Part shown: one piece after another, positions 16,615 to 48,489 of the stretch | How the letters are laid out: every line of letters starts with the position of its first letter | Position numbering within the stretch: the first letter of the stretch is position 1 | Assembly: GCF_964204645.1 (NCBI RefSeq) | Contig: NC_134033.1 | Span: forward strand, 6,782,231-6,846,230 | Origin: Tubulanus polymorphus | Taxonomy: Eukaryota > Animalia > Nemertea | Direction: 5' to 3' | Length of the DNA: 64,000 bases | Notes under the pieces: model-generated | Database searches by the model: none | What the model saw: only the letters and a program-made list of their open reading frames with translations | What the model was told of the DNA's origin: nothing | Position numbers and translations under genes: made by a program

Positions 16615-16624
16615 GATGCTGTAC

Positions 16625-17915: not shown

Positions 17916-18102
17916 ACTCAACTAGCTTGTTAATCTAGTATATTTTTAGTTACATTCTAGTTAAATTTTAGTTATTGGTAGTTGAAATAAAAACAACAAT
18001 ATTTCAACTAGCTTGTTAATCTAGTATATTTTTAGTTACATTCTAGTTAAATTCTAGTTTAATTCTAGTTGCAACAACACAACTAATTTGTTTCTTACAT
18101 AA

Positions 18103-18633: not shown

Positions 18634-19748
18634 GCGAAGTGGAAGAGGTGAAAGAATTAACTGTGAAGAAAAAACCGAGAACTCAGAAACAAATCTAATG
18701 GTCTCGGCAATTAGGAATTAAATCACAGGAATATAAAAAAGCTGAAAAAGAACAAATAAGTTATAAAAATGTCAATAAAAATGTTAATAAAAATGGTGAA
18801 AATATTGTTATTTCTACTCCTTCTAATAATAGAACATTTGATAAATATCTATATTTTGCAACTGGATTTGTAATTGTTTTCATTTTGATTGGGTGTAGTT
18901 GGTATAAGAAATCAAATAAAATTTACGATATTAATAATTCTGAAACTACCGCTATTAAAAATAAAAATACTTCTGAAATTCCAAAATTCACGATAAAAAA
19001 ACGAATTAATATTTTAGAAAAAAAGCAAAAGAAATAATTTTATTTTAATTAATTGAATATTTCACTACTTTTGTCTATCTACGCGAAGCAATTGAATTGT
19101 TCAGATAAGTCATTTCGGATTCTTGATATTTAATTTATTTTTTTTAATTTTTTTATTTCTTAATTATTTAGTCAACAACTTCTAAATCACGATGCCCGTC
19201 TTCATTTTTTCCCATGGTTAATTATTTTAAATCCTTCTAATTCTATTAATTCCTCTGTACTCAATAAAACCCATTCATCAGGTAAAAATACTTTAAATTC
19301 TCGCGTTGTAGTAACATTACAGTAGCTTAGATTTGCTGTTACTTTCTCTCCATATTTAGGTTTTATCTTTTCTAATTTAAATATTTTGTGTTCAATTTCT
19401 TTTGTAACATCGACTAACTTTTTTATTTCAAATTATTTTTGTTGGTTTTATTCTGTTATTTATTGTTGCTAAGAATGCTTTTCTATCTCCCATTTATTAT
19501 GGGGAAAAATTACTTGTGGTGATAAGTGGTGTGTCTTATCTCGTACTCTGGTATGAAACCCCACTTTTACAATTACTAACACAAAACGAAGAAAGAACAA
19601 CCTGCGGGATCAGTGTAAATTACATGTTTCTCAGTGACATCAGCGACACCAGTGTAATAATCTGACACTACACAGTTTGCCTGAAGTCTTCAGCCCGATC
19701 AGTCGACTTTTGTCTGGTGAGCATTCCGTTTGTCAGTCATATTTCTTT

Positions 19749-22016: not shown

Positions 22017-22580
22017 AGTAATAGGGGTAATGGGCTTTCAAGCCAAAGGTCGAACGGTCGAGCTCATTAAAAAACAAAACATTAAAAGTAATTTAAAACT
22101 ATAATATATTTTCATAACCGTGTGCTTTTTATATTATAACTAAATATTTATTCTAAGATATTAATAATTTAAATTTTAAAAGCATATTGTATTAAATCAA
22201 TTGGTCGCTCCACTTCGCTACCGCTCCGCTCCGCGACCAATTGATTTATTTACAATACACAAATTCATATAATCAAATATATTTTAATAATAATAATTAT
22301 TCTATTATTCAACTGAAATACACACGGTTATGAAAATATATTATAGTTTTAAATTACTTTTAATGTTTTGTTTTTTAATTAACTTGACCATTCAACCTTT
22401 AACCTAAAAGCCCATTACCCCTATTACTCTTAAAATAATCATATACATGAATAACATTTAAATTGACAGATCATTCAATATAAAAGTATATATTTACAAC
22501 ATTATTTCAATATTCATATTTGTGTGAGTTAGATTTTTAAACATTAAAAGTGTTAGTAAAGTGTGATTGAAATAATGCAT
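22017..22580 (+). repeat. Left TIR including ~412-bp palindrome (22017-22428)
   Basis: AGTAATAGGGGTAATGGGC... pairs with ...GCCCATTACCCCTATTACT; apex TCAATTGGTCGC-24 nt-GCGACCAATTGA. Confidence 0.9.
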
Positions 22581-23309
22581 AGCTGTTTATACTAGAACAT
22601 GATTCTATTTGAGCCTATATACATTCCATGTAAAGAGCTATGGAATAAATCTATAAATTCACAGCTGTTACAGCTGTTTCTATGACGCCGAGACATATGA
22701 GACATATGCAAACGTGTAGAGAAAATTCTAGAAAGGTGTGCCGGAACCAGATGACGTGGCAGGAAATGAACAGGCGCTGTAACATTACGCTCAGGATATT
22801 ATATCTCTCGAAACGAAATTAGGAGTTTATAGTTTACAATTCTAAATCTAAATGTAAGTACTGTTTTTTGTAGTTATTAGGGCTATTAAATATGAAACCT
22901 TTAGATATATTTGAGTGTATTTAGTATATCTTTTAGATGGCTAGAGTTGCCGCTAATATCTTTTAGATTAATAAAACGCCATACGCATCAAGAAGTGATA
23001 GAGAAACTCAAGATACTCTTTCTGACTGAGGAATCAACAGCAATGGGGATATCGAACCAATAGAAATTAGCACAAGAAACACAAGAATCACCAAAAGATC
23101 GACGAAGAAACTATATAAGAATTTCAAAAACATTAAAACTCCAATGATTAAGTTTAACATTTGTTGATGTAGTTAAATATTTACCAGCAATTGAAAAAAT
23201 GTTTGTAATTATAAATTGTATTTATAGAAATCAAATGATGTATTGGAAGAAACGACTGAACAACTTGTATAATGTATTGTGTAAATCTGATTGGTGAATT
23301 TTTATGTTC

Positions 23310-23640
23310 AGTCGTTTCTATTATGATTAACGCATGCGCATTTAGCAAAACCGGCCATAAATGGCCGCATGTGACGCATGTAACGCATGTGACGAGGACA
23401 TGAATGCGTTTGAATTTTCTATGTTCAGTTGTTTCTATTTTACAGAATTTGCATAATGAATATATAATTATGATTAACGCATGCGCATTAAGCAAAACCG
23501 GCCATAAATGGCCGCATGTGACGCATGTAACGCATGTGTTGTTTCTATTTTACAGAATTTATAGAATGAATATATAATTATGATTAACACATGTGCATTA
23601 AGCAAAAGCGCGCCTGTATGTCCGCATGTGACGCGGGTAT
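23310..23640. repeat. Three imperfect direct repeats with internal dyads
   Basis: ATGATTAACGCATGCGCATTAAGCAAAACCGGCCATAAATGGCCGCATGTGACGC at ~23323, 23470, 23580. Confidence 0.8.
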
Positions 23641-23774
23641 TGTGACTGGTATGATTATCAAGGAATCGAAACAACTTATCAAAGCAGCGAGGAATGAAAA
23701 AGGATGACGTTGGTCGAAGAAATGGAAGAGGATTCTAAAATATTAACCAATTTAGTAAAAAATGCATATAATAA

Positions 23775-24453
23775 ATGGAACCAGAACTAACACAAATTAT
23801 CAATATTACAAATAACACTGGTGGTGTTATAAATATATATTACAAGAAGTGTTCTAAATGTGAATTAGATAAATTAGCTTTAACAGAATTTAGTAAGCGT
23901 AAGATTAGCAAAGATGGTTTTCAATATTGCTGTAAAACTTGTTTTAAACTATATACCAAACAATACCGAGAAGATAATATAGAACATTATAATTATTATA
24001 TGGCAGAATATATGAGAGAAAGATATCAAACAGATCTTAATTTTAGATTAAAACAATGTTTAAGATCTAGATTAACACAATTATTCAACAAAGAAACACA
24101 TTCAGAAACACTATCTAATTTATTGGGTTGTTCAGATGAATTTTTCATATCATGGATAATATATCAATTCGATGATAAAATGAATATAGATAACTATGGT
24201 GAATACTTTCATATTGATCATGTGTTGCCGATTTCTAAATTAAACATGAATGATGAATACAATAAAAAACTTATTTGGGGTTGGAAAAATTTAAGGCCTT
24301 TAGGAAAGAAAGAAAATCAAATCAAATCTAATATACTAGAATACAGTTATATTTAGAACAGTTAACAAAGGCAAAGAAATTTATTGATCAATGGAACAAT
24401 GATCCAAATAATGAACAATACGTTGAGGAATTTGATATCAAGGATCCGAAATG
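23775..24453 (+). CDS. HNH-type endonuclease with N-terminal CxxC-CxxC (NCLDV-like), probably frameshifted near C-terminus
   Basis: CSKC...KDG...CKTC, LRSRL, LLGCS, NYGEYFHIDHVLP, NLRPL...ENQIKSN. Confidence 0.75.
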
Positions 24454-24689
24454 ACTTAGCTGGACAGTTATAATTACTGCTCCTAATAGATAGACAATAG
24501 TAGTGAGATATCAAATAGAATTTAAAATAAAATGTAATAAAAAAACAATAACTTCAACTAGCCATTATTTCTATTTTAATTTTTGATATTTTCTTTTACA
24601 ATTTTTTTCAAAAGAGAATACTTTATATTTTAAATAGATTCAAATAGAAATTCTTTAAATTCAAATAGCTAGTATCAGTAGTCAATCTA

Positions 24690-25309
24690 AATAATCAGTC
24701 AATCAGTAAGAAATCTAAAAAGAATGGTATTGATATTGAAAAAACATTAGATGATTTGGGTATAAGTGATAATAAAGATACAGTTGTAACTAATTGTGCT
24801 CAAGTTAATTGTAATATAGATTATGAAACTATTTATATTGTAAGCATCATCTAGAACTATTGATTGCCGCTGGAAAAACTAAGGAGTTTTTAAATAGAAT
24901 CATTACTTTTCAAGAACTAGACTCTATGAAACCAGATGAAGTAATAAAATATTTTAAGATTTATGAAGAGGCAAGATTAGCTAGAATAAATGATTCTATT
25001 TCAGATGGTATTGTCAAATGTTATTCTAAGTTATGTAACCAGTTAATACCAATTGATGATGAAAATAAATTATATAGTGATTTGAAAAATGACTATTTAG
25101 TTATGACTGAATTACAAAAATGGGTTGGTTATGATTCATTTCAATTAGGATCGGTTATGACATTAATTTCTACTGGTGTCATAACATTTTCGAACATCAA
25201 GCATATGGAATATAAATCAGGCAAGAACGAAACAGATGACGCTGTACTACAACCAAACAGCGAAACAGAAAATGAATCAGAACAAAAATTAACTAAAATA
25301 AATGAGTGA
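24690..25309 (+). pseudogene. Polinton hypothetical protein A (5' disrupted)
   Basis: Homologous to 18103-18633 (IEKTLDDLGI, KHHLELLIA). Confidence 0.75.
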
Positions 25310-25670
25310 TAGCGTTAAGAAAAAGCCTTGATCCGAGAAACAAATTAAATGGGCAAGAGAATTAGGTAAAAGATCTGCAGAATTAAAAAAAGCAAAGAAA
25401 AAGAAATTAACTGATATAAATGAATCACAGACTTTATCTGATATTGATTCAAATAATAATCCATCTGATTCTTCTAATGCTGGAAGTAATTATAAATTAT
25501 ATATTACAATTGGATTAGTAACGGTTATTATATTATCCGGCGTAATATATATATCAAAATTCAAATCTGATGATAAAGATGATTCCAATGACAATGAACC
25601 TATCATACCAGAAAATAAGTCAAATCCTAAAACCATTGAAAATAACCCAAGATTATTATTAATGGATTAA
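25302..25670 (+). pseudogene. Polinton hypothetical protein B with TM segment
   Basis: KKP*SEKQIKWARELG homologous to 18630-19030; hydrophobic LYITIGLVTVIILSGVIYI. Confidence 0.6.
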
Positions 25671-25676
25671 AAGAAG

Positions 25677-26781
25677 ATGAAAAAAGAACAATATTTAAGA
25701 GATTTATATTATAACCCAGAAAGTGAAGTATCATATTCTAACGTTTCAGAATTATGGAATAAAATTAAATCTGATAATGAAAATGGTGCCGTACGGCACC
25801 CACACGGTGATATAAAATATAGTGAATTAAAATCATGGTTACAAAATCAACCAACATATCAAATCCACAAGAAAATGGATAAAACTTATTTAACAAGAAA
25901 AGTAATGTTTTCATATATCGATCAACAATGGCAAGCAGATTTAATTGATATGAAGAACTTAGAGGAATACAACAAAGGATATTTCTGGATATTAAATGTT
26001 ATAGACATATTCAGTAGATACGCATGGTCAATTCCAATCAAAAATAAAACTGGTATAGAAGTAACAAATGCTTTTAAATCTATATTTAAAGAAGCTATTC
26101 CAGATAAGATACAATTTGATGAAGGTAAAGAATTTTATAACAAACATTTAAAAAAAACTATTATCCGATAACGATGTAGACTATTTTTCAACACACTCAG
26201 ATAAAAAAGCATCTATTATAGAAAGATTTAATAAAACATTGAAAACTAGAATGTGGAAATATTTTACTGCTAATGAAACATATAAATATATCGATGTATT
26301 AGATGATTTAGTGAAAGGTTATAATAATTCTAAACATAGTTCTATAAATATGAAACCTATACAAGCTAGAAAAGAAGATAATTCGGAAATAGTTTGGAAT
26401 AATTTATATGGAGCATTTGTTACACATGATTTCGGAGAACCTAAATTTAAAATTGGACAACACGTAAGAATATCTAAATATAGAAAAACCTTTTATAAAG
26501 GTTATACCCCAAATTTGTACAGAAGAAATATTCAAGATTAAAAAGATAATATTAACTAAACCATTCGTTTATAAATTAGAAATCTAAAAAATGGAGAAAT
26601 ATTAGGTTATTTCTATGAACAAGAATTATCACTTGTACCAAATCCAGAGGAAATAGAATACAAAATAGAAAAGTATTGAAAACAAATACTCTTAAAGGAA
26701 AAAAGTATTCTTTGGTGAAATATAAAGGATACGATGATAAATTTAATGAATGGATTTTATCTAGTAAAATTAAAAGAATAA
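25677..26781 (+). pseudogene. Polinton RVE integrase with chromodomain (frameshifted)
   Basis: LYYNP, WQADL, IDIFSRYAW, QFDEGKEF, IERFNKTLK (D-D-E), KHSSINMKP, KYKGYDDKFNEWI. Confidence 0.92.
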
Positions 26782-27370
26782 ATGAATAAAGATTTATTTA
26801 TATTTGAACCGCATAATATGTTAGTTACTGGTGTAACCAATTGTGGTAAAACACATTTCATATTAGATTTGTTAGAAACTATTTATAAGAATCATTTTGA
26901 TAATGTAATATTATTCTGCCCTACTTATGAAATGAATAAAACATATAATAGAGATATAGTTAAGATAAAAAAGTTTATTATATTAAATCCTAAAACAGTA
27001 AAAGAAAATTTAGATAATTGTATAAAAATAGCACTTGATACTTATAAAGGATCAAATACATTATTCATTGTAGATGATTGCGCAAATTTACATGATTCAA
27101 AAGTGAGAGAAAGTGAGTTATGTTATCTAGCTTTCTCTGGAAGACATTTCGGGATAACAACAAGGGTTTTAAATCAAAAATATAATTCAATTGTTAAAGA
27201 CTTTAGGGAGAATATAAGATTTCTAGTTTTATTCTACAATAAAGATAGAAAATCTATGCAACAATCATTGGAAGAAAATCAAATTATACCTACTGAATTA
27301 CATGATGAATATATGTTCAAAATTATTACTGAGATTACAATTTCCCTATGAATATAAATTTATAAAATAA
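26782..27370 (+). CDS. A32/FtsK-like packaging ATPase (C-terminal lesion)
   Basis: Walker A GVTNCGKT, Walker B IVDD, SGRH, LNQ...FRENI. Confidence 0.9.
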
Positions 27371-27877
27371 CTATCTATATATCTATCTAATACGTATTAA
27401 ATACGTATTAAATACGTATTAAATACATTAATACTTAAAACCCCCTTTTTTAAATGAATATTATTCATACAATTTTCAACCAATTTATTTTTATTTTTTC
27501 AACTAATATATGAATAAGTTTGAAAATAAATATTCCTGAAGATGACTATTAGGATATAGTCGAAATAAACTACTATCTCGAAGTTTCATTTTCGGACTTT
27601 TTATTATCATTGTGGGATTCTCTCCTCATCGCGTCAACACGGATATTGTGTTCTACCTATCGTGATTTGAAAATAATAAAGGTTATTTATTACTACTGAG
27701 GTTTCAATATAAATTTAAAAAAGAAATATAATTTAAGGTATTTTCAAATAATATGTATTAGATATGTATTAGATACCCTATTAGATGCCTTAAATACTTA
27801 AAACCCCTTTTTTATTTACTATTATTTTATACAATTTACAACTAATATAATTATTTGAGTTAAATATAATTAATATC

Positions 27878-28738
27878 TTAATCACTTTCATCATCACTCT
27901 CCAATTCACTATCAGACCCTAACAATTTATTCAAATTCTCTACCGAATTTTCTTCTTCAAATTCTCTATTTTTTTTATACTTATTTTTCACCTTTTTTAC
28001 CGCATCATCAATAGTTGTTTCATTGTTATGCTTATTCATCCAATCAAATTTATCATTATTTTCTACTTTATGTTTCATAGAATCTTTATAAGTGTTTGCT
28101 ACTAATATTTCATTTACAGTGTTTGATCCTAATATTTCATTAGCATCGGTTAGATCTAATTCATCTTTATTAGGTGTTGCTAATAATAAATCTTCATATA
28201 TTTTTTCACCATTTAATTTTTGATTTGGAACAAACTTTGAAACATATCTAAATGGGTGTTCTATAAATTCTTTTAAACCAACACGTTCTATAACATTATT
28301 TATATGTACCCTTGTATTCATATGTTTATTCCAATTTGATGTAGCGTTTGAAAATTCACTTTTACAATATCCACAATAATTTCTATTTTCACTAACATTT
28401 AATATTATTTCATTATTAGATGTAGAGGGTATTACATTATTAGATGTAGAAGGTATTACATTATTAGATGTAGTAGGTATTACATTATTAGATGTAGAAG
28501 CTATTACATTATAAGATGTAGAAGGTATTACATTATTAGATGTAGAAGGTATTAAATTACTTAAATTATCAACAACTTCACTTTTATTATTATCGATTTC
28601 TATTAGTTTAGTTTTATAAATTTTGAAAATAGGATCAAATATCAAAGCTATATTACAAGGTATTACATAATATAAACCATCATTATTTTCATGTGTATCG
28701 ATGTATGGAATATGTTTATATACTTTACCTCCTTCCAT
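27878..28738 (-). CDS. Hypothetical protein with IPSTSNNV repeats and C2H2-type zinc finger
   Basis: Intact 286-aa ORF; six 8-aa repeats; CGYC...HMNTRVH. Confidence 0.7.
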   Translation of the reverse strand: MEGGKVYKHIPYIDTHENNDGLYYVIPCNIALIFDPIFKIYKTKLIEIDNNKSEVVDNLSNLIPSTSNNVIPSTSYNVIASTSNNVIPTTSNNVIPSTSNNVIPSTSNNEIILNVSENRNYCGYCKSEFSNATSNWNKHMNTRVHINNVIERVGLKEFIEHPFRYVSKFVPNQKLNGEKIYEDLLLATPNKDELDLTDANEILGSNTVNEILVANTYKDSMKHKVENNDKFDWMNKHNNETTIDDAVKKVKNKYKKNREFEEENSVENLNKLLGSDSELESDDESD

Positions 28739-28770
28739 TTATTATACATATTTTTATTAAAGTTAAAATT

Positions 28771-30018
28771 TTAATACATAACACTATTCAATTGAGAATT
28801 TACAATATTTAATTGCGCGTCAGATATAATATAAATGTGCATTTTGAAATTTTTGATTCCTTTATTCTTTGTCATGAATAATTGTATTCCATCTTTAGTG
28901 TTTTGTAATTTTTTTCCAGAACCATGTAATGAATTATCCTCTGTTGTTCTAAAATCTAACCATAATGCATATTTATTACCGGTATAATAATCAATTTGAT
29001 TAATGTTACAATTTTCAGATGATTTTACGTTTTCATTCATAAAATGTTTTCTAATTTCTGGCCATTGATCAATCATTCTCATTCCTTGGCAAAATATTTT
29101 ATTTGCTATTCCTTCGATAGTTATTTCTTCTTTAGTTATTTCAGGATTATAATAATTATCAACATTTATTGCGCCATTAGTATATGTTGCAATGGTAAAA
29201 ATATTAATATACCTTTAATAGATCTTCTTGGGAAGTTAATATTCTCATTAATTATTTCATCATTTGCATTAATAGTTACGGTTTTAAATGTATCAATATA
29301 ATCATATAATAATGAAAATCCTTGATTGTATTGAGTTTGAATTATACTTGAAATATTTTCATCAGTTACTGTGTCTTATTCTAAACATATATTCGATAAT
29401 TTATAACTCATATCTTTATTAACGCTAGATATTTCAATTTCATTAAGAGGAGCAAATGTTATTTCGAATATAACGTATTCTTGAATTGCGTATTTATATA
29501 AAGGTGCATTGTTATTTATCAATTCAAAGTCTAATGGAATTTTATATTTGCTTCCATATATACTTTTTATCAATTTATCTACAGCATTAGTTAATATTGC
29601 GCTATTAGCTTCTGATCTTAATTCATTTTGGTTTTCTGATTGGATGCCTTGAAATATCATATTATTTCTATTTTTCTTTAGTTAACCATAAATCTTTATA
29701 ATGCATAAATCAATTATAATCATCTAATGAGAAAACTGTTTCTGGACCAATCTTTATAGTTAATTTTTTAATCAAATATCTTCCAACATTATCAACAACA
29801 TAATTATCATTATTACCGATTACTTTTATATCGGCAGATAAATAAATACTATTTGGAACGTAAAAAGTATTTTGTGTTAATCGAGGAATTCTAACATATA
29901 AAGTTTCATCGGGATTGATATTAGAAGGGTTATGAGTAATTATATGATGTGATCTTTCTGCTTTAATAGCATTAGATATTCTATGATTCTTAGAAGGATT
30001 GATATAACTCCCACTCAT
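28771..30018 (-). pseudogene. Major capsid protein (double jelly-roll, Polinton type)
   Basis: ITHNPSNINPDETLYVRIP, NVGRYLIKK, KIPLDFEL, LSNICLE, ALWLDFRT...LHGSG, DAQLNI; ~415 codons; assignment from recalled Polinton motifs. Confidence 0.75.
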
Positions 30019-31448
30019 TTATTTGACAAAAAAATTAATTATTTATTTTTTAACATATTCACTAACCCAAAAATAATAGCACTTACAACTGTAATTAAAA
30101 ATAAAATAATATGTTCAGCAGCAAAGTTAAGAATATTCCCAGCAGATTTCAATATTAAACCAACAATTGACGCAATAACTCCGGGTAAAGCTGCAGCAGA
30201 TTTTTTAGATAGTTCCCATAAATATTTTGCTAATTTCTTTAAACCATCCTTAACTTTATCTTGTATAGAATTATTATCATTCGGGGTTTATCCGGTTTAT
30301 TGGGAGTAGGAGTAGATTTCAGTGAATTTGATATAGCTAAACCTATTGTCGTAAATACCATAGTTACTGCTGTTAGAATTGAAAGAATTGTGATTCCTTC
30401 AAACTTAAATAATAATTTTATTCTATCTTTCAATAATATTTCAGAATTTGGTTTAATTATTAAATCTTTAACAACAACTTTTAATCTATTAATACAATAA
30501 TTATATGATTTTTTTAATAATTTAATTTCTTCTTTCTGAAATTCTATGTTATATTCTAAATTATCAATTTCTTTTCTAAATATGCATTTCTTTTTTTAAA
30601 TTCAATTTCTTCATTAACTTTATTATCTCTATCTAATTTTAATTGTTCTGATTCTTTTCTTGATTTAAATAATTCATATTCTAATTTTAAAATCTCTTAT
30701 ACTTTTATCATGCGCAAATTTATCAGCTTTATTTTGTATACTAATAATTTCTCTAATTGCTTTATCAGAAAATATATTTAAATCTTCTAATTCTTGTTTT
30801 GTTGCATCAAGTAATCCATTTGGTAAAAGTTTTTCAGTTTGAACTCCTCTTGAATTAGGTTTACTAGTTTTGGAAGTTATATTCTGTTCAGAAGTTGTTT
30901 CTGTTTCTAAATTATTATCGATTGTTTCAAATAATTCATTAATTCTTTGTTTAAATACTCTTTCATTTTTAATAATTTCTTCTTGTGTTACATCTTCTAT
31001 TTCATTACTATTTCTTATTCTTTTAATTCTAGATAGGTCTAACTTAAGCAAAGTTGATTCTGCTAATATAATAATCATCTTTCAAATGATAATAATATTC
31101 ACCATCTAAAGATTTTACTTCTTGTACTAAAAGTCTGGCGCCTCTGGCATTTATATTATATCCAGATTTTTCAAATATAGGTTTGGAATTATAAATATAT
31201 TCATTATATTCTAAATTTTGTTTTACTAAATCTGGATTTTCATTTTCAGGATTTAATCTCGATCTAGTTCTTCTATCAAATTCATCTGTTGATTGGCCTT
31301 TAGAACCACTATCTGCTAAATTAGAATTATATGCTGATTCATTACCATCATCAATATTAGTTTCTGCATCATTATAATCATCATCAATATATCCTTCATT
31401 ATTATTTCCCATACCTTCCATTTCATAATCTTCTCCACCTTCTGCCAT
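30019..31448 (-). pseudogene. Acidic/coiled-coil protein with C-terminal hydrophobic helices
   Basis: Fragments 31044-31448, 30674-31078, 30239-30433, ending AAALPGVIASIVGLIL...AEHIILFLITVV. Confidence 0.65.
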
Positions 31449-31463
31449 TTACATAATAAAAAA

Positions 31464-31701
31464 TCAAAATTTAAAATATAATATTCCTCCGATTACAATT
31501 CCTATACAGGTTAAAGCTAATTTAGTATTTTCATGGGATTTATTATCATCATTTAGTTTAATTATTTCATGTTGAATATTATCAGTTTTTATATCTTCTG
31601 ATGTATTGTAATCTTTTATTTTAGAATCATTATTTAATTTAATATTATTAGTTTTAGTTTCTGTTGATTGAATGTGTTTTTTATTTTTTTTCACCTTCCA
31701 T
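31464..31701 (-). CDS. Small protein with C-terminal TM segment
   Basis: LALTCIGIVIGGILYFKF; start region ambiguous. Confidence 0.5.
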
Positions 31702-32763
31702 TAGTTTTGGAGCAGTAATTATCTTTTATTTATATCATTTAATCCAAATGAATTATTTATTGTTGCAGTTTTAATTAGATTATTATAACCAATTATGTTT
31801 CCCATCTTTAATACTAAATCATTAGAAATAATTAATAGATTAGGGCCTATACAATAATTTAATCTAATATGTGATTTATCTAAATAATTTTGATATCTTA
31901 CAATGTTTTCCGGAATCGATCTATTTTTATCATTATGAATTGAATCTTCAAATAATACTTTAAACTGTTTCTGCGCATCGAATGAAGTGTTATCATTTCC
32001 AGTTATTGGTTATCTTGTTTCAACTGGCGCACCTAAAATACATATCAAATAAGTTCTAATAGATTGATTTATTCTTTGTATTCCAGCTTAAGTAAAACTT
32101 TCACTATTTTCTAAAATGAAATTAACCCAACCATTATTATTATCAATTTTATAATTATGATAAGCTGAAATTCTATGCATATAATCAATTCTTTTTAATT
32201 CAAACTCTTCACCAACACCTTGCAATTTACCATGCGCTCTAAAATCGGAATTAATATTTATATTAAATTCATTACATATTTTATAAAACTTAGATAGATT
32301 AATATTATTATCCAATTCTTTAAAATATTTAGACCCGGGTAAAGGACATTCTAATACATTTAATATTATTCTGATTTGAAAATATGTGTGAAATCTAAAT
32401 ACTGTGAGAATTAATTTTAAATCAGAATACTTCAAATTTTTATCTAAGTTATTGAAATGATCATTCCAACTTATTCCACATCCTGTTGTTGCACAATAAA
32501 CAGCAAAATCTAATTGGTTCTGCCATTATTTCATATTAGATTTTACTTTATATATATGATATTCATCTCGAGTAAAAGTAACTTCATATGTATTAAATAT
32601 ATTTTCCATTTTAGAAATAAAAAACTGTGATTCAGTAACATAAATTTCTAAATTAGTTAATGAATTTAAAACTACATTTTTATATGTAATATTTTTCTTA
32701 AAATCTATTGCAGGAATATTATATTTAATTGATTTATTATATTGGAAAGCTTTTGAACCCCAT
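31700..32763 (-). pseudogene. Conserved Polinton hypothetical protein
   Basis: WQNQLDFAVYCATTGCGISW, VFRFHTYFQIR...CPLPG, AGIQRINQSIRTY, DAQKQF; several stops. Confidence 0.7.
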
Positions 32764-32779
32764 TTATATAATTAAAAAA

Positions 32780-33214
32780 TCAATAATTAACTAATTCTTT
32801 TAATAATTTATCTTGTTCTTCAACTGTTATATGACCATTTAAACTTATTATATAATCTAGTGTATTCTTTAATTTATTAATTTCTTTTATATTAGTTTTA
32901 ATTTTTTCTTTATTACTTTTTATATTTAATTTTGAACTTATACCAGTTAAAACACTTGAACTTAATCCTAATACACCAATTGATATAGCTAAAGGTGTTA
33001 ATGGACTGAATATTGCTAGAAATGTTATTACAGAACTAATTGTAACCGAACCACTTATAATAAAATAATATATAATTTTAGATTTTAAATATTTTTTCTT
33101 TTTAACTTTTAAGTCACTTTCAAATTCTAATATTTGTTTTTCTAAATATGTTTTTAATTTAGTTTTATTTATATCATGAGGAATAATATCAATATTATCA
33201 ACTTTATCTTCCAT
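32780..33214 (-). CDS. Two-TM hypothetical protein
   Basis: Intact 144-aa ORF with two adjacent hydrophobic helices flanked by Lys-rich segments. Confidence 0.7.
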   Translation of the reverse strand: MEDKVDNIDIIPHDINKTKLKTYLEKQILEFESDLKVKKKKYLKSKIIYYFIISGSVTISSVITFLAIFSPLTPLAISIGVLGLSSSVLTGISSKLNIKSNKEKIKTNIKEINKLKNTLDYIISLNGHITVEEQDKLLKELVNY

Positions 33215-33234
33215 TTATTTAGCAAAAAAAATTA

Positions 33235-33657
33235 CTAATTAGTAAACTTATGAGCAACAAATATAACAATAACAATTCCACCTAAAATCCATATTATTTC
33301 ATATTTCTGTTGTTCTTTACTTGGGGTATAATAATCTGATAAATTAGGTTTGTATAGATGTAATTTTTCTTTATTTGTTACTGCGTTATATAAACTCATT
33401 GCATCATCAACTGATTGAAAATCTCTATGTGAAATCTTCTGATCATATAGTTCTTTATTGATGTAATCCATATAGTTTTGTCGTTTTTCTCTATATTCTT
33501 CCGTTGCTTTATTATATTTCTCTAATGCTAAGTTATGTCTTTTTTGTTCTGTTAATGATCCATTTTTATCAATATGTTTAAATAAATATCCACCACCAGT
33601 AAATGCTAAAGCGTTAACAATTGCCGATCCTATAATAGTTATAACTGCAGAAGCCAT
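33235..33657 (-). CDS. Conserved Polinton protein with hydrophobic N-terminus and C-terminal TM
   Basis: IVNALAFTGGGYLF...EQKRHNLALE...LSDYYTPS motif set. Confidence 0.75.
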   Translation of the reverse strand: MASAVITIIGSAIVNALAFTGGGYLFKHIDKNGSLTEQKRHNLALEKYNKATEEYREKRQNYMDYINKELYDQKISHRDFQSVDDAMSLYNAVTNKEKLHLYKPNLSDYYTPSKEQQKYEIIWILGGIVIVIFVAHKFTN

Positions 33658-33681
33658 TTATTTAGTAAAATGATTATGCAT

Positions 33682-33897
33682 TTATATGGGAGGAATATAT
33701 TTTTGTTTTTCCAAATAATCAATAGTTAAATTAGATAAAGTAACCGCTAATGTTAATTTCAAAATATCATTTATATCAAATCTATCAACATTAACACTTC
33801 CCATTTTAAATACTTTTTTTAATACCATTGAATCACCAACAGTTCCAAGTAATGCGCCATTATATAATCCAGTTATTATCCACTTATTATCACTCAT
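33682..33897 (-). CDS. Small hydrophobic Polinton protein
   Basis: 71 aa, GLYNGALL...DILKL...DYLEKQKYIP. Confidence 0.65.
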   Translation of the reverse strand: MSDNKWIITGLYNGALLGTVGDSMVLKKVFKMGSVNVDRFDINDILKLTLAVTLSNLTIDYLEKQKYIPPI

Positions 33898-34254
33898 TTA
33901 TTTATCAAAAAAATTACTATCATCAAAATATTTAGTTATCTTATTTATGATTAATTCAACATTTATTTCATTACTAGTTTCATTTGTATATATTTCAATT
34001 ATTATTTTTTTAATATCATCGATGATAAAATCTTCATCTAATTCATAAAATCTTAAAGATTCTCTAATTAAATTAGTAATCTTTTCTACATTTAAAGTTT
34101 CTTTATCTATTGTTGTTTCATACTCAAATGTTTTTTCATTAGAAAATGTAATATTTTTGATATGTGTAATTACATCATTAACGTTAAATTTCATTTCTTT
34201 CTCATGTTTAAAATCAAACCCAAAACATATACTCGGCCCAACAGTTATATTCAT
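33898..34254 (-). CDS. Hypothetical protein
   Basis: 118-aa ORF with TAAATG start; its stop abuts the next start. Confidence 0.6.
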   Translation of the reverse strand: MNITVGPSICFGFDFKHEKEMKFNVNDVITHIKNITFSNEKTFEYETTIDKETLNVEKITNLIRESLRFYELDEDFIIDDIKKIIIEIYTNETSNEINVELIINKITKYFDDSNFFDK

Positions 34255-34270
34255 TTATATAGTGAAAAAA

Positions 34271-35025
34271 TTACTCTTTACATCTTATAACTAATTCATA
34301 TATCACAGGAAAGTTATTCAAATCAATTAAATAACCATTATGATTTCTTATTTCTAATTTAAAATTATTGAAATGTGGAATACAAGGTTTGAAATCACAT
34401 TCAGTTAAATTATAATTTATTTGAGTTCCAAATTGTTTAACATTTTTAGCGGTAAAATATTTAGTATACTAGAACTACAAATTGTTTCTTTAGTTGCTTC
34501 AAAAGTTTTTGTAGGCTCGATTAAATTGCAATAAATATAAAAGTGTGTAAAAGGTATTATATTTGAGCTGCCTTCTGCGTTTCCAGTAACTGTGGGCGGT
34601 TTAATTCCTAACATTTTAGCCAGTGGTTTGTTTACCATAAATTTATGTTGTTCATTAGATATCTTTATTCTTATTTTATTAGTACTATCAATTTTATTAA
34701 ATTTAATTTCAAATACAGAAGTGCCCCCGATTTTCAACCGAGCTCTTCTATTAATTTCCTGCGCTAATGATTCTAAATTATATAATCCTGGTTTCAAAAA
34801 TATATGAAACCATTTATCTTTATTTCTCATATAAATCATAAACCCTCTATGTTCAAAAGTTTTATCTGATATATTATGAAAAGAATTACATAAACTTATA
34901 TTTACTTATATTAAATCTACACAATTCTTAAATTCTCTATCTAATTGTACTAGTAAATTATGAGATTTATAATTTGTAAGTTTTCTAGAATCAACAAATA
35001 TTCTGTATTCTTTTAATTCCACCAT
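34271..35025 (-). pseudogene. Minor capsid (penton-like) protein, frameshifted
   Basis: PGLYNLESL, LAKMLGI, YIYCNLI, C-terminal FKLEIRNHNGYLIDLNNFPVIYEL. Confidence 0.7.
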
Positions 35026-35042
35026 TTATTTTACATATTTTC

Positions 35043-35396
35043 TTATTCGAAATCTATTTCATGGTGCCCTTTTTCATTCTTACCTTTGTATACGAAATAG
35101 AAATCTCCAGAACATAATTCTTCTAAATCTTCACTTGATAATCTATGAAATCTATCCGGTAAATATGTTCTGAATTTATATGTATTTCCTTTTAATCCTT
35201 CATATTCTAAGTGTATAACAAATTTATCTCCATAGTTATTAGTAATTGTATCAATATTTGTAATTAGATATTTCGTATGGATTGTTAATTCTGTTAACTT
35301 TTTGAATTTATAATCTACAGATTTTACATTTGTGATATCTTTAATTCTATCTAGAAATAATTTGTTGTTCTCACTGTGTGTTTGTTTACTCTCCAT
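35043..35396 (-). CDS. Hypothetical protein
   Basis: 117 aa; FKKLTEL...NYGDK...YLPDRF...GKNEKGH; homolog at 19150-19493. Confidence 0.7.
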   Translation of the reverse strand: MESKQTHSENNKLFLDRIKDITNVKSVDYKFKKLTELTIHTKYLITNIDTITNNYGDKFVIHLEYEGLKGNTYKFRTYLPDRFHRLSSEDLEELCSGDFYFVYKGKNEKGHHEIDFE

Positions 35397-35425
35397 TTAT
35401 AATACATATTTTTATTAAAATTTGA

Positions 35426-38400
35426 TTAACACGTTAGAATTCTTTTCATTATCTCGTTCTCTTTTGTTTCTTCTCTTTTAAATTTTAAGTATTCATCTAA
35501 ATTGCAACCATAAGCAACTGTATGAATTCCATCATCCAGAATATATCTTTTATCATCAAATGGGTTTAGACTTATCTTTTCAATTTCTTCAATAAACATT
35601 TCATGATCTTCAGATCTTAAACATCTCATCTTATGTTTTCTAACTTCTTCATTGAATAGACAATTGATGTAATCTTTGAAATGAATATTCTTTTCTACTA
35701 CATTTTTGGATATTCCTTTTAACTTTTTAGATTCATGTTCTTTAGTTTTATATCGATCTAATACCAATGAATTCAATCATTTCTTCACCGCCTAATTCAT
35801 TTTTGAATTTACCGGGAACTTTTTATTATCATTGCTAAACAATTCATGATCTTTAGGATAGTTACTGAAATCAAAATGATGTTTTAATGTTTTTAAATCA
35901 TCAGTTATGTTATCAGTTTTTATCTTCAATATGTAACTGTCAGTATCAAAATATAATATTTTTATATGTTTTTCTCCAAAAAGTGGTTGTAATACATTAT
36001 AATAGAATTCATACATTAGTAATTTTGATAATTCTAAAACTGAAGCGCCAACATAGATTGGTTTATTAAATTTCATTGATTTTCTTCTCATCTTAACTGC
36101 AGCTAAATTTTCATCAAATATTCTGTTACCAATGAACTTAGGATATGATTGTAAATGTCTAATTCTTTTACCATTACTAACTAACTCAATATCATTTCTA
36201 TTACTAATATTTTCACAAGTCTTACCATAGAATGCATTATTCATTAACTTGAAGAAATCTTTCTCGAAATCAGTTTTAGCTTCAGTTCTCTGTTTGGTGT
36301 TAAAATCTATATATTTTTCTAACCACTTAGATTGACTGAATGAAATATATCTATGTACTTTTTTTAGAACCATTCCTTGTTTTAGATAAAACTTTAACAT
36401 TCTATAATGTACTACATAATTATATTTATCTTCTTGAGTTACCATTAACTTTTCTGTATGAATAAGATTTTCGGGTTTAATTCTTTTTTGATAATTTGAT
36501 AATTCTTCATGAGTAACGGTTTTATGTTCTGGACAGTATGCTAGATTTCTAGATTTAAATTTAATATGTTCAGGATATTCTAAATCTACAACAAAGAAGT
36601 AACCAGTATCTGAATCATCTGCAATATCTAGAATTCTTTTCTTCCAATCAAATTTATCATTATTTTCATTCTGTAAAACTTCACTTATTTCAAATACTCC
36701 ATAAGGTTGTGGTTCCATCATTGCCCAACCATACAAATTATTTGCATCTATATATAATAACTTATATCCAGGGTTATCATTTACATTGAAATATCTATCA
36801 CCTAATACACCTGAAACTCCTCCTCTTATAGATTTTTCAAATGATAATAATTGATCTATATTTGTTAACAAATCCATTTTTATATCTGTAAATTTTAATC
36901 CACAATCCCATGTTAAACCTGGTGATGAATAACAATGACATAGATCAATATTGAAATATTTTAGGTTTACATCTCTAAACCTTTCGAATATATCGGTTAA
37001 TAATAATACATCTGATTTTAAATATAAATCTACTAATTGCCCATGATTTTCTATTTTGAAATGATTCCAAATATTCAATGTTCTATTATATACTTCATCT
37101 TTAACATATTCATTTTTTAATTCATCATAAAATTGTTCTTTTAATAATTCAGTTATATTGAAATCATTATGTGATTTATAAAATGAATATGGAATTGCTC
37201 CTTTATATCTCATTAATTGAAAATCATCATTATTTGGATAGTGTTGTTTTAATATTTTTAATTCATCATCAACTAATGATTTTGATAAGTTATCTAATGA
37301 ACTATTTAAAAATCTATATGAATCTATAAATCTTAGGCAACCAAATTGGAATGATATATAATTCTCAGATGTTTTAGCTAACATTCTAAATTTATAAGTT
37401 GGTATTTTATCTTTTGATCTATTTGAATTTAATCTCTCTATTTCATTATTGATTTCTTCTATTTTATGGCATAACTGTTTGATGAATTAATGTGCATCAT
37501 ATCCTGATAGATTATGAAATATAACTGGTACAAAGTTAATTTTCTTAGCTTGTAAGTTACAATTCGCATGTGCAGCGCCTCTAAACTTTCCATTCAAATG
37601 ATCATGGTCTCTTACTTTTTTATCTTTATAATTAAATATCTTTTCACAATAATAACATTTATCTGCAAACGCAAATTCTTCTTTATCTTCTTCTGTCATT
37701 ATAATTTATATATTTGTATTCAATAATTTACTAAATCTTATTTCATATTCAATTAATAAGTCACAAAAATGATTGATAACATTTTCATTTCTATAATCAT
37801 AATATTCACTTTCAATTAGTTCTGGATAATCAGATTTAATATATAACCCGAAAGCTGCAGCTGATCGATGAATCTTTTTAATAGTATTTGTTATTGGTGC
37901 TTCTTCTGAAAAATCATTTTCATTAAAATTTAATTTCTTTCTTTTATAATATATTTCTTTTCTATCTTGATCGGTTAATTCTTTATTTAATGATTCAAAA
38001 TCTCCATATATAAGAAATGGAACTTTATTTTTGTAATCATATTTTTTGAATTCTAATATTTTATCTTTTTCATTTGGTAAAACTAATTTACAATAATCAT
38101 GATTTTCACATAATTGTTTATGATTTAATAATGTACTTTCATTACTGAATCTATGTAAAAATTTTCTACAAAGATATATTTTATGGTGATCATTTTCTGA
38201 TTTAAAAAATAAATCGATTTGTTTAATCCACATATAATGATTTTCATAATATAGTATATCTATAACATCGTTTGAATCATAATTTTTTGATAGATATAAA
38301 GGTTCTAATGTATAATGTTTTATGTTGTTACCTTTTGTATTTGGTAATTTGATTAAATCAAATACATTTATTCTTAAATTATTATCTCTTTCTATTTTTG

Positions 38401-39454
38401 GGATGTTTTTAATTATAACAGGATACTTATCTATCTTATAATTATTTTCAAATTGTTTATAATGAGTTAATCTAAAACTATGTTGTTTATAATCTTCAAC
38501 TGGGTGTAAACAACTTATTATAGCCCATAGAAAACATTTATCATCTTCATTTTGTACATTTATTACAGCATTAGTTTTAAATGGTAGTTTAATATAACTC
38601 GATGCTTTAATATCTGGTTCTTTATAATATGATACATTATTTTCATCGATTGGTTTTGATTTAGTTAACTAATTATATTTTGTGTTATAAACATGTAAAG
38701 TCATAAATATTATTTCATCAAATATTAAACCAGATCCTTCAAAATATATCTCTTCTATTTTAGTTTTTACTTCATTATAACATTTATCTAATTTATCATT
38801 TATATGTTGTTTTGAAATAATATGTTGTGAATGAGAATTTATATTATATATTGGTTTATCTTCAGATTTTATGAATTTAACTTTAGAAGATATACTTATT
38901 TTAGGATATTCAACATCAGTTATTATTTTTATTATTTCTTTCATATTTTCTAAATGTTTTTTATTTTCTTCTAATGTTTTTCATTTATGAAATTTGAACT
39001 CGATAGCTGCTGGGCCAATATCACTTTTAAATGCTTCGGTTATCTCTATATCTTTTTTATTATCTAATGAATTAATATATTTTCTTACATCTTCCATGTA
39101 TGGTCTTTTATTGTTTAGATTATTTTTTATGCTTTTAATTGTCTTCTGTTTCTTATCATTATCTTTATCAAAATAATCTTCACCTAAAATATCATTATTC
39201 TTATTTCTAATATGACTTTTAGATTTTAAATGTTCATTATAATATCTTTTATCACTGAATGATTGATTACATGTATCACATTTGTATGTTTCTTTTTCAT
39301 TCTTTAATTCATCTAATTTAGATTCTAATATATCATCTTTATATTCTAGTTTCAATTTATTCTCTAAATGTGTTTTAGTTTTATTGTGTCTTGCTTTTTG
39401 GGATTTATCTATATTGATATTACATGTTGGGCAGTAGTACTTATTTGCTTCCAT
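35426..39454 (-). pseudogene. Protein-primed DNA polymerase B (intein-free), frameshifted
   Basis: N-terminal zinc fingers, YGDFES (ExoI), EndoVII-like CYYC...DHDH...AHANCN, FHNLSGYD, DSYRFL, YIDANNLYGWAM, KLMNNAFYGK, YFDTDS, FDDKR. Confidence 0.95.
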
Positions 39455-39508
39455 TTTAATACAAAATTTTTTATTAAAATTGATTTTAGAAGTTCAATGA
39501 TTTATATC

Positions 39509-39893
39509 ATGCATTATTTCAATCACACTTTACTAACACTTTTAATGTTTAAAAATCTAACTCACACAAATATGAATATTGAAATAATGTTGTAAATATA
39601 TACTTTTATATTGAATAATCTGTCAATTTAAATGTTATTTATGTATATGATTATTTTAAGAGTAATAGGGGTAATGGGCTTTCAGGTTAAAGGTTGAATG
39701 GTCGAGTTCATTAAAAAACAAAACATTAAAAAGTAATTTAAAACTATAATATATTTTCATAACCATGTGTATTTCAGTTGAATAATAGAATGATTATTAT
39801 TATTAAAATATATTTGATTATATGAATTTGTGTATTGTAAATAAATCAATTGGTCGCGGAGCGGAGCGGTAGCGAAGTGGAGCGACCAATTGA
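39509..39893 (-). repeat. Right TIR, truncated at hairpin apex
   Basis: Reverse complement of 22197-22580 with few mismatches. Confidence 0.9.
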
Positions 39894-40813: not shown

Positions 40814-41674
40814 GTAAGTCTTTTTCCTGGATTCTTTAAGCCCAACACCACCAATAAAAATGCACAAAGCATCATAATAGTGGTATTGCGTGCGCTCTCT
40901 ATATTTTTAATTACTCTCTACATCTTATAACTAATTCATAAATTAAAGGAAGGTTATTCAAATCAATTAAATAACCATTATGATTTCTTATTTTCTTAAT
41001 TTTTAAATTATTGAAATGTGGAATACAAGGTTTAAAATCCGATTCAGCTAAATTATAATTTATTTGAGTTCCAAATTGTTAAACATTTTTTAATGGTAAA
41101 ATAGTTAATAAACCAGAATTACAAATTGTATCGTTAGTTGCTTCAAATGTTTTTGTAGGATCAATTAAATTGCAATAAATATAAAAGTGTGTAAAAGGCA
41201 TTATATTTGAATTAGCGTCTACGTTTCCTGTAACAGTTTGTGGTTTAATTCCTAACAGTTAAGCCAAAGGTTTTCTTACCATAAATGCATGTTTGCTTTC
41301 ATCATCTAACTTTATTTTAATTTTATCAGAACTATTTACAGATTCTTTTGACTTTCAAAAACTGTAGTTTATGATCGACATCTCGCATTTTAAATGCGTA
41401 CAAATGTGCCAAAGTGACACAGTGGGGCACCACCACATGCCATAAGGTAAGCAGTTTTAAGTAATTTTTCATGGGCATCCATGCCTGCAGCCGGGGGGGG
41501 AGTTGTACGTGCAATTGCGTTCTGTAATGCTTAATGTATATGATAAAATGGCCGATTTTGCGTACAGAGGGGGAGGGGGGTTGGAAAATTCAAATTTTAT
41601 GCGTACGTAATAAATGAATGATCTCTAACCGATAGTTCAATTGTAGAATCAAAGAAACTTACAAGTACAAAAGA

Positions 41675-42422
41675 ATGAAATATGAGAAAACGTGTCCAGA
41701 TAATAAAGAAACACTTGAAAAGTTGGAAAAACAATATAATGAATTAGCAAGAAAAACATATTATTGTAAATATTGTAAATTGATTATCTATATAAGTAAT
41801 TCAAATCTACATAATAGAACAATAAAAAATAAAGAAAACGTAAGTAAATACCAAGAACTTAATGAAGATCTATTGCCAAGATATGATAGAAAAAAATGCC
41901 CACAATGTATTTATGAGTACTTAAGACAAGAAAATTCTGTGATATTTTCTAATGAATTTGGATGGCAAAGAAATTTATGGGGTAATAAAAAAACTAGAGA
42001 TATTCTTATAGAACCAAAATTAAAATATCTAGATGAAATGTTTAAGATATTTTCTATGGAATATCATACACCAGAAAATAAGCAATGGATTGAAAAAAAA
42101 ACCTAAAGTAACAAAAGAAGATATAAGAAATATAAAAGAAACGTTCACAAACATATTAAAATATCATGTGGATAATAACATAACAGATTCAATTAATTAT
42201 GAATTCTGTTTAAATAAGATTGTACATTTTTTAAACATCGATATTATAATTCCGTTTGATGAATTAACGAACAGAAAGAAACAAAGAGAGCTAGATGAAG
42301 TGTGGAATAACATAGAACTTTATTTAAATGAGAAAAATGAAATGGAAGAACCTAAACAATTAAATAAAAATGAAGAAACCAGTAGTGATGTAGAGTATGA
42401 TGATCTTGATTTTATGTTTTAA
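41675..42422 (+). pseudogene. VLTF3-like (poxvirus A2 family) late transcription factor, frameshift in A-run ~42095
   Basis: CKYC and CPQC motifs; C-terminal SINYEFCLNKI...KKQRELDEVWNNIELYL resembles the VLTF3 C-terminal pattern (recalled, not searched). Confidence 0.5.
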
Positions 42423-45043
42423 TAACCATAAGGTAATGTTTTTATTCCATCATCCAAAATATATCTCTTATCGTCGAATGGATTTAAGCTAGTTTTTTCA
42501 ACTTCATTAATGTACATCTCGTGATCTTCTAAACAATTCATTTTATGTTTCATAACTATTGAGTTATATAAACACTTAATATAATCTTGAAATTCTATAT
42601 GTTTGTCAACCACATGCTTTGTGATTCCTTTTAACTTTTTAGCTTCATGATCTTTTGTTCTATAACTATTCATTTTACTTCTTATCCCAACAAATACAAT
42701 CATTTCATCACCCCCTAATTCATCTTTAAATTTACCAGGAATTTTTTTATTATCATTGCTAAATAGTTCATGATCTTCTGGATAATTGCTATAGTCAAAA
42801 TGATGTTTTAATGTCATTTGTCTTGATTTTTAGTATGTAACTGTCGGTATTGACCGCTATTAATGGAAATCCACAGTTAAATGTTCCATCATCAGTTGAT
42901 AAATCATAAACATAATCTGATGGCTGATATATTTCAAATAAATCTTTAACTTCGTCAGTTATTTCTATTTCTACATGGCTTAAGTTAAAGCAATTTGGTT
43001 TAGATTTAATCAATCCAATATTCATATTAAAACCTAATGAATTGCATAATAGATTCAATCCTGATATACCAACTTTTCCTTTTTGTGCAAATGTTATTAC
43101 TGGAGAACTCGTAAATTTTTTAGCACCATCTGCTGCATAAAATCCAATGAAGAACCATCTTCTTAAATTATATTTTGCATTTAATACATAATCTGGAACT
43201 ATCTTTTCTTTTGTTGAAGTATTACTTTTCACTAATGCGTGAATATAGAATTCATCATTATATTTTGTGGCAAAATCTTTAGGATTATTTACAAATATTC
43301 TATAAACCGCTGATGATTTCATATGATCCACGATTCTAAATATTTTGTGTGAATAAACATCTTCACAATATTTTTTAATTCTTTCTAATAATTTCAATTC
43401 TTGATTACATAAATACCAACGATATTGAGTGCTATTAACATATTTATACACACTTGCTGAACCATCACCCATGAAAAATCCTGTGATAAAATATTCTTTT
43501 TCTTCTAATGTTTCAGGTTCTATATCATAAATATTATCAATTATTTCATCAAATTACATATGATTCATTCTTTGGAAAAATCTTTTATGTAATAATTCAT
43601 CTCCAATTTTTACATCAGTTGGTTTTATTTCATCACCATTTCGTTTAATTAAACTATGATCTTCTGTAACATCTACAAACCCGAATATAGTTCTAACTCT
43701 ATAAATTTTCTTATTCGTTTTATGCCTAATAATATCTTTTAATTTTTTCCATCCATTTCTTGTCCAAACATCCATTAATCCATTTATTTGTATCAATTCT
43801 TTTTTACCATACGAAATATAAAGTTCATTTTGTTTTGGAATTATTTCTGAAATTCTTCTAATTAATATTTGGTTATTGTATTTTAATAATATTGGGGTAT
43901 CAGCTGTTACAGAATCAAAATATAATATTTCAATATGCTTTTCCCCAAAAAGTGGTTGTAAAACATTATAATAAAAATCATACATTAATAATTTTGATAT
44001 TTCTAAAACAGTTGAACGTATAAATATAGGTTTATGAAATTTCATTGACGTTCTTTTTAATTTTACCGCGGTTAAATAATCTTCAAATCTCTTATTTCCC
44101 TAACTGTCTTGGACTTGATTGTAAATGTCTTAATCTTTCACAATTATTTACTAATTCAATATCATTTCTATTTCTAATATTTTCACATGTTTTTCCATAA
44201 AAACTATTATTCATTAATTTAAGGAAATCTTTTTCAAAATCTGTTTTAGATATGGTTCTCTGTTGAGTATTAAAATCTATATATTTTTCTAACCACTTCG
44301 ATAGATTAAATTCAATATATCTATGTACTTTCTTTAATTTCATTCCTTGTTTTAGATAAAATTGTAACATCCTATAATGAACAATATAATTGTATTTATT
44401 ATTTTGAGTAAGTATTAATTTTTCTGTAAAAACTTGATCTTTCGGTTTTATTTTTTTCTGATATTCACTTAAATATTTATCATCTACGGCTAAATGTTCT
44501 GGGCAATATGGTTTCTTGTGTTAAACTTGATGTTATCAGGATATTCTAAATCAACTACAAAGAAATAACCAATTGGTGCTTCATCTTTTAAACCCATAAT
44601 TGCACTTTTCCAATCAGTTTTATCATCATTATCAACTTTTTTTAATATAACAAATCTATAACATTTTCATCATCATAATATTCTGTTAAATATAAAGCTT
44701 CTAATGTATAATCTTTAATATTTTCACCTTTTGTCTCTGGTTATTGCATTAATTCGAATATATTTATTTTTAAATTATTAACTTTTTCTATTTTAGGAAT
44801 CATTTTTATAGTTACAGGATATTGATCAATTTTATATAATGTTTCATATTTCCGGTAACATATTATTCTAAAACTATGCGTAATATCTTCTGTTGGGTGT
44901 AAACAACTAATAATTGACCATGGAAAACATTTATCATCTTCATTTTGAACATTTATTACTGCTTTTGTTGTAAATGGTAATTTAATATAAGATGATGCTT
45001 TAATATCCTTTTCTGTTGTAAAGTTTGAATCATTTTTAAACAT
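42419..45043 (-). pseudogene. pPolB copy with intein; internal deletion removes exonuclease and motif A
   Basis: SSYIKLP...VINVQNEDDKCF joined near 44640 to GYFFVVDLEYP; KLMNNSFYGK; YFD-[intein]-TDS; GKFKDE; FDDKR. Confidence 0.9.
42849..43913 (-). mobile_element. Intein with LAGLIDADG homing endonuclease in pPolB motif C
   Basis: Block A SVTADTPILL, block B VDVTEDHSLI, ITGFFMGDGS and FIGFYAADGA, block F YVYDLSTDDGTF, block G LIAVN|T; 1065 nt in frame, with one stop at 43554-56. Confidence 0.92.
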
Positions 45044-45133
45044 TTTATTACTTTTTGATGTTTTATTTCTTTTTGTATTATAAACATATAGTATATATTT
45101 TGTATTATAAGATGTATCTGTTTTTCAATTCAG

Positions 45134-48300: not shown

Positions 48301-48489
48301 AGATATGAAATGTTGTTTTCAGTATATACGTGATATGATTTGGTCTCAGACAAGATTTCTCATTTGCGATGAAAAACTATGACCGTCCATTTGTGTTATA
48401 AATCGAATCGCAACAAAACAAATTCAAAGTTTTAAATATGAATGAAACATACTTTTAGACAAACAAAAACCAAATCAAATCGTAAGAAT

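Follow-up and report, generated by a model that had tools for sequence, protein, structure and literature searches.

A deleted copy of a likely VLTF3-family gene beside the DNA polymerase of a multi-copy Polinton in the nemertean Tubulanus polymorphus

The 64,000-nucleotide stretch of the Tubulanus polymorphus genome analysed here (the window) carries, next to a decayed DNA polymerase gene, a deleted and probably 5'-truncated copy of a gene of a multi-copy Polinton which is likely to encode a transcription factor of the VLTF3 family. Taken together with the proposal that intact copies act through the host RNA polymerase II, we give this reading about an even chance of being right. VLTF3 in polintoviruses is already in print, and the gene, whose copy in the window is itself dead, is a known kind of Polinton cargo. 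It bears on the question of how virion genes are turned on in animal Polintons, for which a zinc-finger-fused VLTF3 in a many-copy family and a measurable TAAATG motif offer a concrete handle, and it is the finger fusion and the motif that are most worth following. The case also adds to the argument that a giant-virus insertion in an animal genome should not be diagnosed from VLTF3 alone. The features discussed are collected in Table 1.

Table 1. Positions in the window of the VLTF3-like gene and of the features around it
Feature	Positions	Strand	Remarks
Integrase and A32 ATPase block, decayed remnant of a related element	16550..19135	+	71-78% nucleotide identity to main element
Main Polinton	22197..39893		385-nt terminal inverted repeat arms, 98%; no VLTF3
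Gene fragment common with main element	40909..41335	-	86% nucleotide identity to 34269-34688; no Pfam family
High-copy small repeat upstream of the gene, left end uncertain	41336..41628		GC 0.41 vs 0.24; holds TAAATG at 41611
5' surviving part of VLTF3-like gene	41675..42106	+	U1/C2H2-type zinc finger, C4 zinc-ribbon remnant, first helices
Deletion junction with frame change	42094..42102	+	About 40 codons of relatives missing
3' part of VLTF3-like gene	42102..42422	+	Pox_VLTF3 C-terminal half and acidic tail; stop overlaps pPolB stop
Decayed protein-primed DNA polymerase B (pPolB), second element	42419..45124	-	Tail-to-tail with VLTF3-like gene
Intein-like insert with LAGLIDADG endonuclease in pPolB catalytic DTDS motif	42864..43910	-	LAGLIDADG_3 23.7 bits, cut-off 22.5

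The gene occupies two overlapping frames of the forward strand, 41675-42106 and 42033/42102-42422, and the peptides and Cys motifs quoted in a first-pass annotation of this DNA are present in them. That annotation had described a frameshifted gene of about 250 codons; the overlapping frames are indeed there, but the break between them is a deletion junction and the relatives of the gene are 446-707 aa long. In the 5' part the zinc finger spans residues 28-59 (zf-U1, E 2.8e-4, 21 bits, below the Pfam cut-off of 22), while for the 3' part the structure model predicts three helices at a pLDDT of 60. Among the genomic reads of run X5, 200 have loose ends behind 42098 which continue into other sequence with an agreement of 0.96, the read depth drops by half at 42091-42152, and across the break one contig has about 125 nt more between its anchors. 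The two parts correspond to residues 278-399 and 443-546 of an intact relative, P0002, with about 40 codons between them unmatched. The diverging reads and the longer contig, which agree with this gap of about 40 residues, therefore identify the break at 42098 as a deletion junction, and a simple homopolymer frameshift or an assembly slip at this position was ruled out by the same reads. Further upstream, 109 reads of X5 depart from the window sequence just before 41670 and the relatives hold 170-280 further residues ahead of the region matching the 5' part, so the natural start of the gene has probably been lost as well. The Cys pairs of the relatives, which would form a C4 ribbon, are partly lost in the window copy, and some zinc ligands of the relatives are missing from it. 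The deletion and the probable 5' loss together make this copy a pseudogene.

When 1.84 billion representative proteins were scanned with the 3' part using HMMER, two proteins were recovered, namely P0002 (697 aa, 52% identity, E 3e-18), whose cluster has two more members, and P0003 (446 aa, 49% identity, E 2e-10). The 5' part matched residues 278-399 of P0002 with 39% identity over 123 aa (pairwise E 2e-23), and thus both parts of the window gene match the same intact proteins, in order. The relatives, of 446-707 aa, begin with several C2H2 fingers, followed by a ribbon of Cys pairs (CxxC..CxxC) and then by a helical region; two of them are 36% identical overall, with the ribbon and the helical part kept in both. 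Word-seeded protein searches confirmed none of 217 candidates for the read-through of both parts and none of 86 for the 3' part among longer proteins, and the core of P0003 retrieved P0003 alone (1 of 585). Likewise, none of 29, 327 and 601 pattern matches was confirmed in three IMG/VR scans, and the single metagenome match (L001, 1 of 220) turned out to be a bacterial coiled-coil protein and was rejected as a relative.

The first-pass annotation had noticed a resemblance to VLTF3 and proposed a Pfam search and an AlphaFold-Foldseek comparison, and the resemblance was borne out by a profile match above the cut-off for the 3' part and by support from the intact relatives in the ESM Atlas. Among the 40 of 175 listed ORFs of the window that were scanned with Pfam, one, the 3' frame, matched PF04947 (Pox_VLTF3), with E 3e-6 and 27.5 bits against a cut-off of 25; without the acidic tail it scored 28.8 bits and as a longer frame 29.7. 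The match covers positions 73/86-164 of the 168 of the profile, so that the whole domain is not present in the window copy, which marks this copy as broken and not the family assignment as wrong. No Pox_VLTF3 match was given by Pfam for the read-through of both parts with an X at the break, nor for two intact relatives either as whole proteins (0 of 2) or as cores (0 of 2), and the profile signal therefore has to be called marginal. In the ESM Atlas, 27 of the 30 matches to the core of each of two intact relatives carried Pox_VLTF3, with top scores of 0.95 and 0.93 and with 208 and 200 shared features; according to the tool's note a score of 0.95 is reached by about 1 in 100 shuffled whole proteins, a figure for whole proteins, of which the cores are parts. 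These matches include clusters of Nucleocytoviricota and of Preplasmiviricota, and one cluster carries A2L_zn_ribbon (PF08792) in 43% of its members; PF08792 itself was not matched in our Pfam scans. In the structural comparison, zinc-finger proteins led the Foldseek list for a relative (low-confidence model, pLDDT 43), with weak matches to the VLTF3 proteins of cowpox (rank 24, E 0.02) and of a Tetraselmis virus (rank 39, E 0.12), and for the 3' part, whose model is of low confidence too, none of 44 fold matches reached E<=0.001. Sequence searches of the PDB gave zinc-finger or chance matches, with neither TFIIB nor any other solved structure matching the core. We consider homology of the window gene to VLTF3 highly probable.

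The surroundings of the gene are those of a Polinton. AT-rich Polinton DNA extends from about 16.5 to 45 kb of the window and is surrounded by host-like DNA with retroelement remnants. The main element encodes pPolB, an rve integrase and an A32 ATPase, all above their Pfam cut-offs, and gave no VLTF3 match by tblastn or Pfam. As the first-pass annotation had stated, the VLTF3-like gene has no counterpart in the main element, and tblastn finds none elsewhere in the 64-kb window; the matching slot beside the main element's pPolB is occupied by an unrelated ORF of 117 aa (35396-35043). The adjacency to an intein-bearing pPolB was also correctly seen, as a pPolB with a LAGLIDADG-containing insert adjoins the gene and the stops of the two genes overlap at 42419-42422. 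This second pPolB is 75-79% identical to that of the main element in three nucleotide blocks, and it is matched in tblastn by the pPolBs of three polintovirus loci (L002-L004). Its insert, which presumably shows the end motifs of an intein, is absent from the main element's pPolB. The LAGLIDADG intein is optional in the family: the flanking pPolB is covered at more than twice its depth, and 1070 nt are skipped there in one contig. Polinton pPolB genes interrupted by homing endonucleases or inteins are already known (passage of PMC11161782).

The blocks at 16550-19135 and 40909-45124, 71-86% identical to the main element, are remnants of a related family, and may or may not derive from the same insertion. 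Pox_A32 in the first of them stays below its cut-off (E 4e-4), and the fragment at 40909-41335 we take to be minor-capsid-like. Terminal inverted repeats were found for the main element only and none surround the VLTF3-bearing copy, which is a truncated Polinton remnant. Among the 40 of 175 window ORFs scanned, Pfam at the sequence level detected no capsid family such as the double jelly-roll major capsid protein of Polintons, and no DNA-primed PolB, D5, RNA polymerase or VLTF2 was seen. An isolated insertion from a giant virus (Nucleocytoviricota) was ruled out, the neighbours being Polinton genes. We also observed that 16550-45124 holds two related Polinton families, either adjacent or one within the other, and that the element bounded by terminal inverted repeats may have inserted into or beside an older one; no target duplication is evident at its ends, and just outside its left arm part of the terminal repeat occurs once more in inverted orientation (22017-22428).

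Relative to the mean of four host-flank bins, and at 90% likeness, read depth was 7.7-17x over the VLTF3-like gene, 14-31x over pPolB and 7-13x over the intein, ratios that come from another individual and from four runs of one study and whose flanks may not be single-copy. The stretch of VLTF3-like gene and pPolB is thus present in many copies in the species, the number itself not being given by depth. One contig crosses the tail-to-tail junction of the two genes with more than 40 nt on each side, and it is likely that one multi-copy Polinton family carries the VLTF3-like gene beside its polymerase.

Passages of several published papers describe comparable systems. VLTF3 homologs are reported in polintoviruses of stony corals (Stephens et al. 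2024, PMC11131425, in passages that cite an earlier report of a subgroup by Krupovic and Koonin 2016). Like the window element, these are endogenous animal Polintons with pPolB and rve integrase, in which the VLTF3-like gene is an accessory, patchily distributed among elements. The relatives of the window gene carry an N-terminal array of C2H2 fingers, whereas the passages of PMC11131425 give no domain architecture, gene position or promoter analysis; in the text passages of the papers cited here we found no description of a C2H2-fused VLTF3. With Pox_VLTF3 of vaccinia A2 and the NCLDV, where it is a core gene (PF04947), the window gene shares the profile match in the C-terminal half, and its relatives have a CxxC..CxxC ribbon ahead of a helical region, whereas the family is much diverged, has extra zinc fingers and is represented here by a broken copy. 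Its setting differs as well, being a Polinton of the 15-20 kb type in which neither RNA polymerase nor VLTF2 was seen. VLTF3 is also listed in MELD viruses (PMC8502044, legend of Fig. 6) and in PLV clusters, including about 30% of two Zephyrvirus clusters (passages of 10.64898/2026.06.19.733378). In these viruses, PgVV-like and Tetraselmis PLV among them, it is, as here, a sporadic cargo of small Preplasmiviricota genomes, but they are protist-associated or of unassigned host, whereas the window holds an integrase-pPolB Polinton in an animal genome. Mriyaviruses and ariadnaviruses (passages of PMC11253617 and 10.64898/2026.08.29.747986) keep VLTF3 in small or reduced genomes, comparable in this to the small element type of the window; unlike it, they belong to the Nucleocytoviricota and also keep VLTF2. 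A passage of the mriyavirus paper states that VLTF3 is not detectable outside Nucleocytoviricota (PMC11253617), a restriction which the window and coral elements contradict, so that the occurrence of VLTF3 beyond that phylum is not acknowledged throughout the literature. The lone VLTF3 copies mentioned for a sea anemone genome (passage of PMC5294986) may be Polinton-derived.

The motif TAAATG places a stop codon directly ahead of the start, often after a run of T, and resembles the late initiator of poxviruses, TAAAT being the essential initiator of vaccinia late promoters (passage of PMC6831550). The inference of a helper's late factor had been called in line with the TAAATG promoters, and the enrichment of the motif in the main element is real: within 22581-39508, 10 of 26 ORFs of at least 60 aa start with TAAATG. 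Short ORFs do so in 43 of 460 cases (p 1.4e-4), and the Markov null expects 7.7% (p 1e-5). Such starts were seen in none of 25 ORFs in host DNA, in none of 7 in the right block (mostly fragments) and in 1 of 2 in the left block. The motif next to the gene fares otherwise, since that at 41611 is out of frame and lies inside the end of a separate high-copy repeat, for which it was rejected as the promoter, and the VLTF3-like gene's own start has no TAAATG. The repeat, presumably Harbinger/MITE-like, reaches a depth of 2961 at 41574, with thousands of reads having diverse loose ends behind 41621-41630. In the polintovirus loci found through pPolB, TAAATG heads 6 of 12 ORFs in L004, 1 of 5 in L003 and 0 of 18 in L002, and the record to which L002 belongs gave no PF04947 (0 of 1). 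In L004, a distant polintovirus fragment from IMG/VR, pPolB and the integrase fusion start with the motif as well, and it is therefore not late-specific. VLTF3 was found neither in the main element nor in L004, which is a 9-kb fragment, so that absence there weighs little; as TAAATG is enriched in both, it characterises some of these Polintons and does not need VLTF3 in cis. We found no published description of TAAATG starts in animal Polintons in literature listings.

We argue that, if intact, the protein would bind the element's own DNA through its extra zinc fingers while its zinc-ribbon and helical VLTF3 core, which presumably works in the likeness of TFIIB, would bring host RNA polymerase II to the promoters of the element. 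Intact copies would in this way activate the genes of their own element, with TAAATG as the initiator that the VLTF3-like protein serves; the transcription-factor role in this setting, the use of the host polymerase and the function of TAAATG are what we infer. Indirect support comes from the ariadnaviruses, nucleocytoviricots without an RNA polymerase of their own which keep VLTF3 (passage of 10.64898/2026.08.29.747986), so that there is no obvious need for a viral polymerase, and from the TBP-like genes of related midsize viruses (passage of PMC8502044).

A different role is conceivable in which the element acquired a VLTF3-derived domain in the distant past and joined it to zinc fingers, the product being dispensable or repurposed cargo that serves as a DNA-binding regulator or repressor of element or host genes instead of activating late transcription. 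The sister main element, 75-86% identical in nucleotides over the common genes, has the unrelated ORF in the slot and still has its TAAATG starts, the relatives show strong divergence and a fusion to several C2H2 fingers, and the 40 ORFs scanned include neither VLTF2 nor any other partner of a late factor. On the other hand, the core keeps enough features for VLTF3 clusters to come out on top in both Atlas searches, and ribbon and helical parts have both been kept between two relatives of only 36% overall identity. We consider this reading rather unlikely, about as likely as the helper-linked role that follows.

The first-pass annotation had offered instead that the element could supply, or compete with, the late transcription factor of a helper, and extended, this would have the element parasitise a large DNA virus, pox-like or other, in the manner of a virophage, the RNA polymerase of that virus reading TAAATG, with VLTF3 supplying or out-competing the helper's late factor. 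The enrichment of the motif (10 of 26 in the main element, 6 of 12 in L004) is compatible with such a helper. A T at -3 is a poor context for translation in animals, and this fits a transcription start inside the motif. The part played by TAAAT in vaccinia late promoters (PMC6831550) and the Polinton-like elements that occur with entomopoxviruses (cited in passages of 10.1101/2025.10.09.676808) would agree with it too. However, helper genes were not seen among the 40 ORFs scanned, the L004 genes that start with the motif include pPolB and the integrase fusion while none of the 18 ORFs in L002 does so, it is missing from the start of the VLTF3-like gene itself, and a term search of the paper on entomopoxviruses and PLVs returned no mention of promoter, VLTF or TAAAT (PMC11296320). 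With no helper in view, the copy broken, and TAAATG enriched also in elements where no VLTF3 was detected and present on polymerase and integrase genes, the proposal found no support here, and we regard a helper-linked role as unlikely. That the match to VLTF3 is a chance one, made by an unrelated zinc-finger protein of Polintons through a domain that is helical and of low complexity, is very improbable, since, although the Pfam score lies 2.5-4.7 bits above the cut-off and is absent in both intact relatives and no structural match is confident, two methods and three sequences agree, an Atlas score of 0.95 is, according to that tool, rare for shuffled whole proteins (about 1 in 100), and the PF04947 match persists when the acidic tail is removed.

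Going beyond the action of intact copies through host RNA polymerase II on their own element, a group of animal Polintons might run a miniature poxvirus-style late programme, with TAAATG at most gene starts and, in some families, a zinc-finger-fused VLTF3 acting in cis and, for sister elements lacking VLTF3, in trans, through host RNA polymerase II or a hijacked pox-like helper; we hold this to be unlikely.

Several smaller features of the window may be recorded. A main-element ORF on the reverse strand at 32780-33214 has a weak match to SLATT with two transmembrane segments (E 0.0025, below the cut-off); both MELD viruses and PLVs are listed as carrying SLATT genes. Within a 286-aa zinc-finger ORF of the main element lies a 24-nt tandem repeat in 7 copies (28382-28597), and between the left block and the main element repeats of 33/34 nt form two clusters about 1 kb apart (19728-20985). 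To the right of the pPolB remnant another high-copy repeat (45392-45800) reaches depths of about 770-1600, and from 48486 to 64000 the window is taken up by a long array of a 118-nt satellite with a higher-order period of about 3.3 kb.
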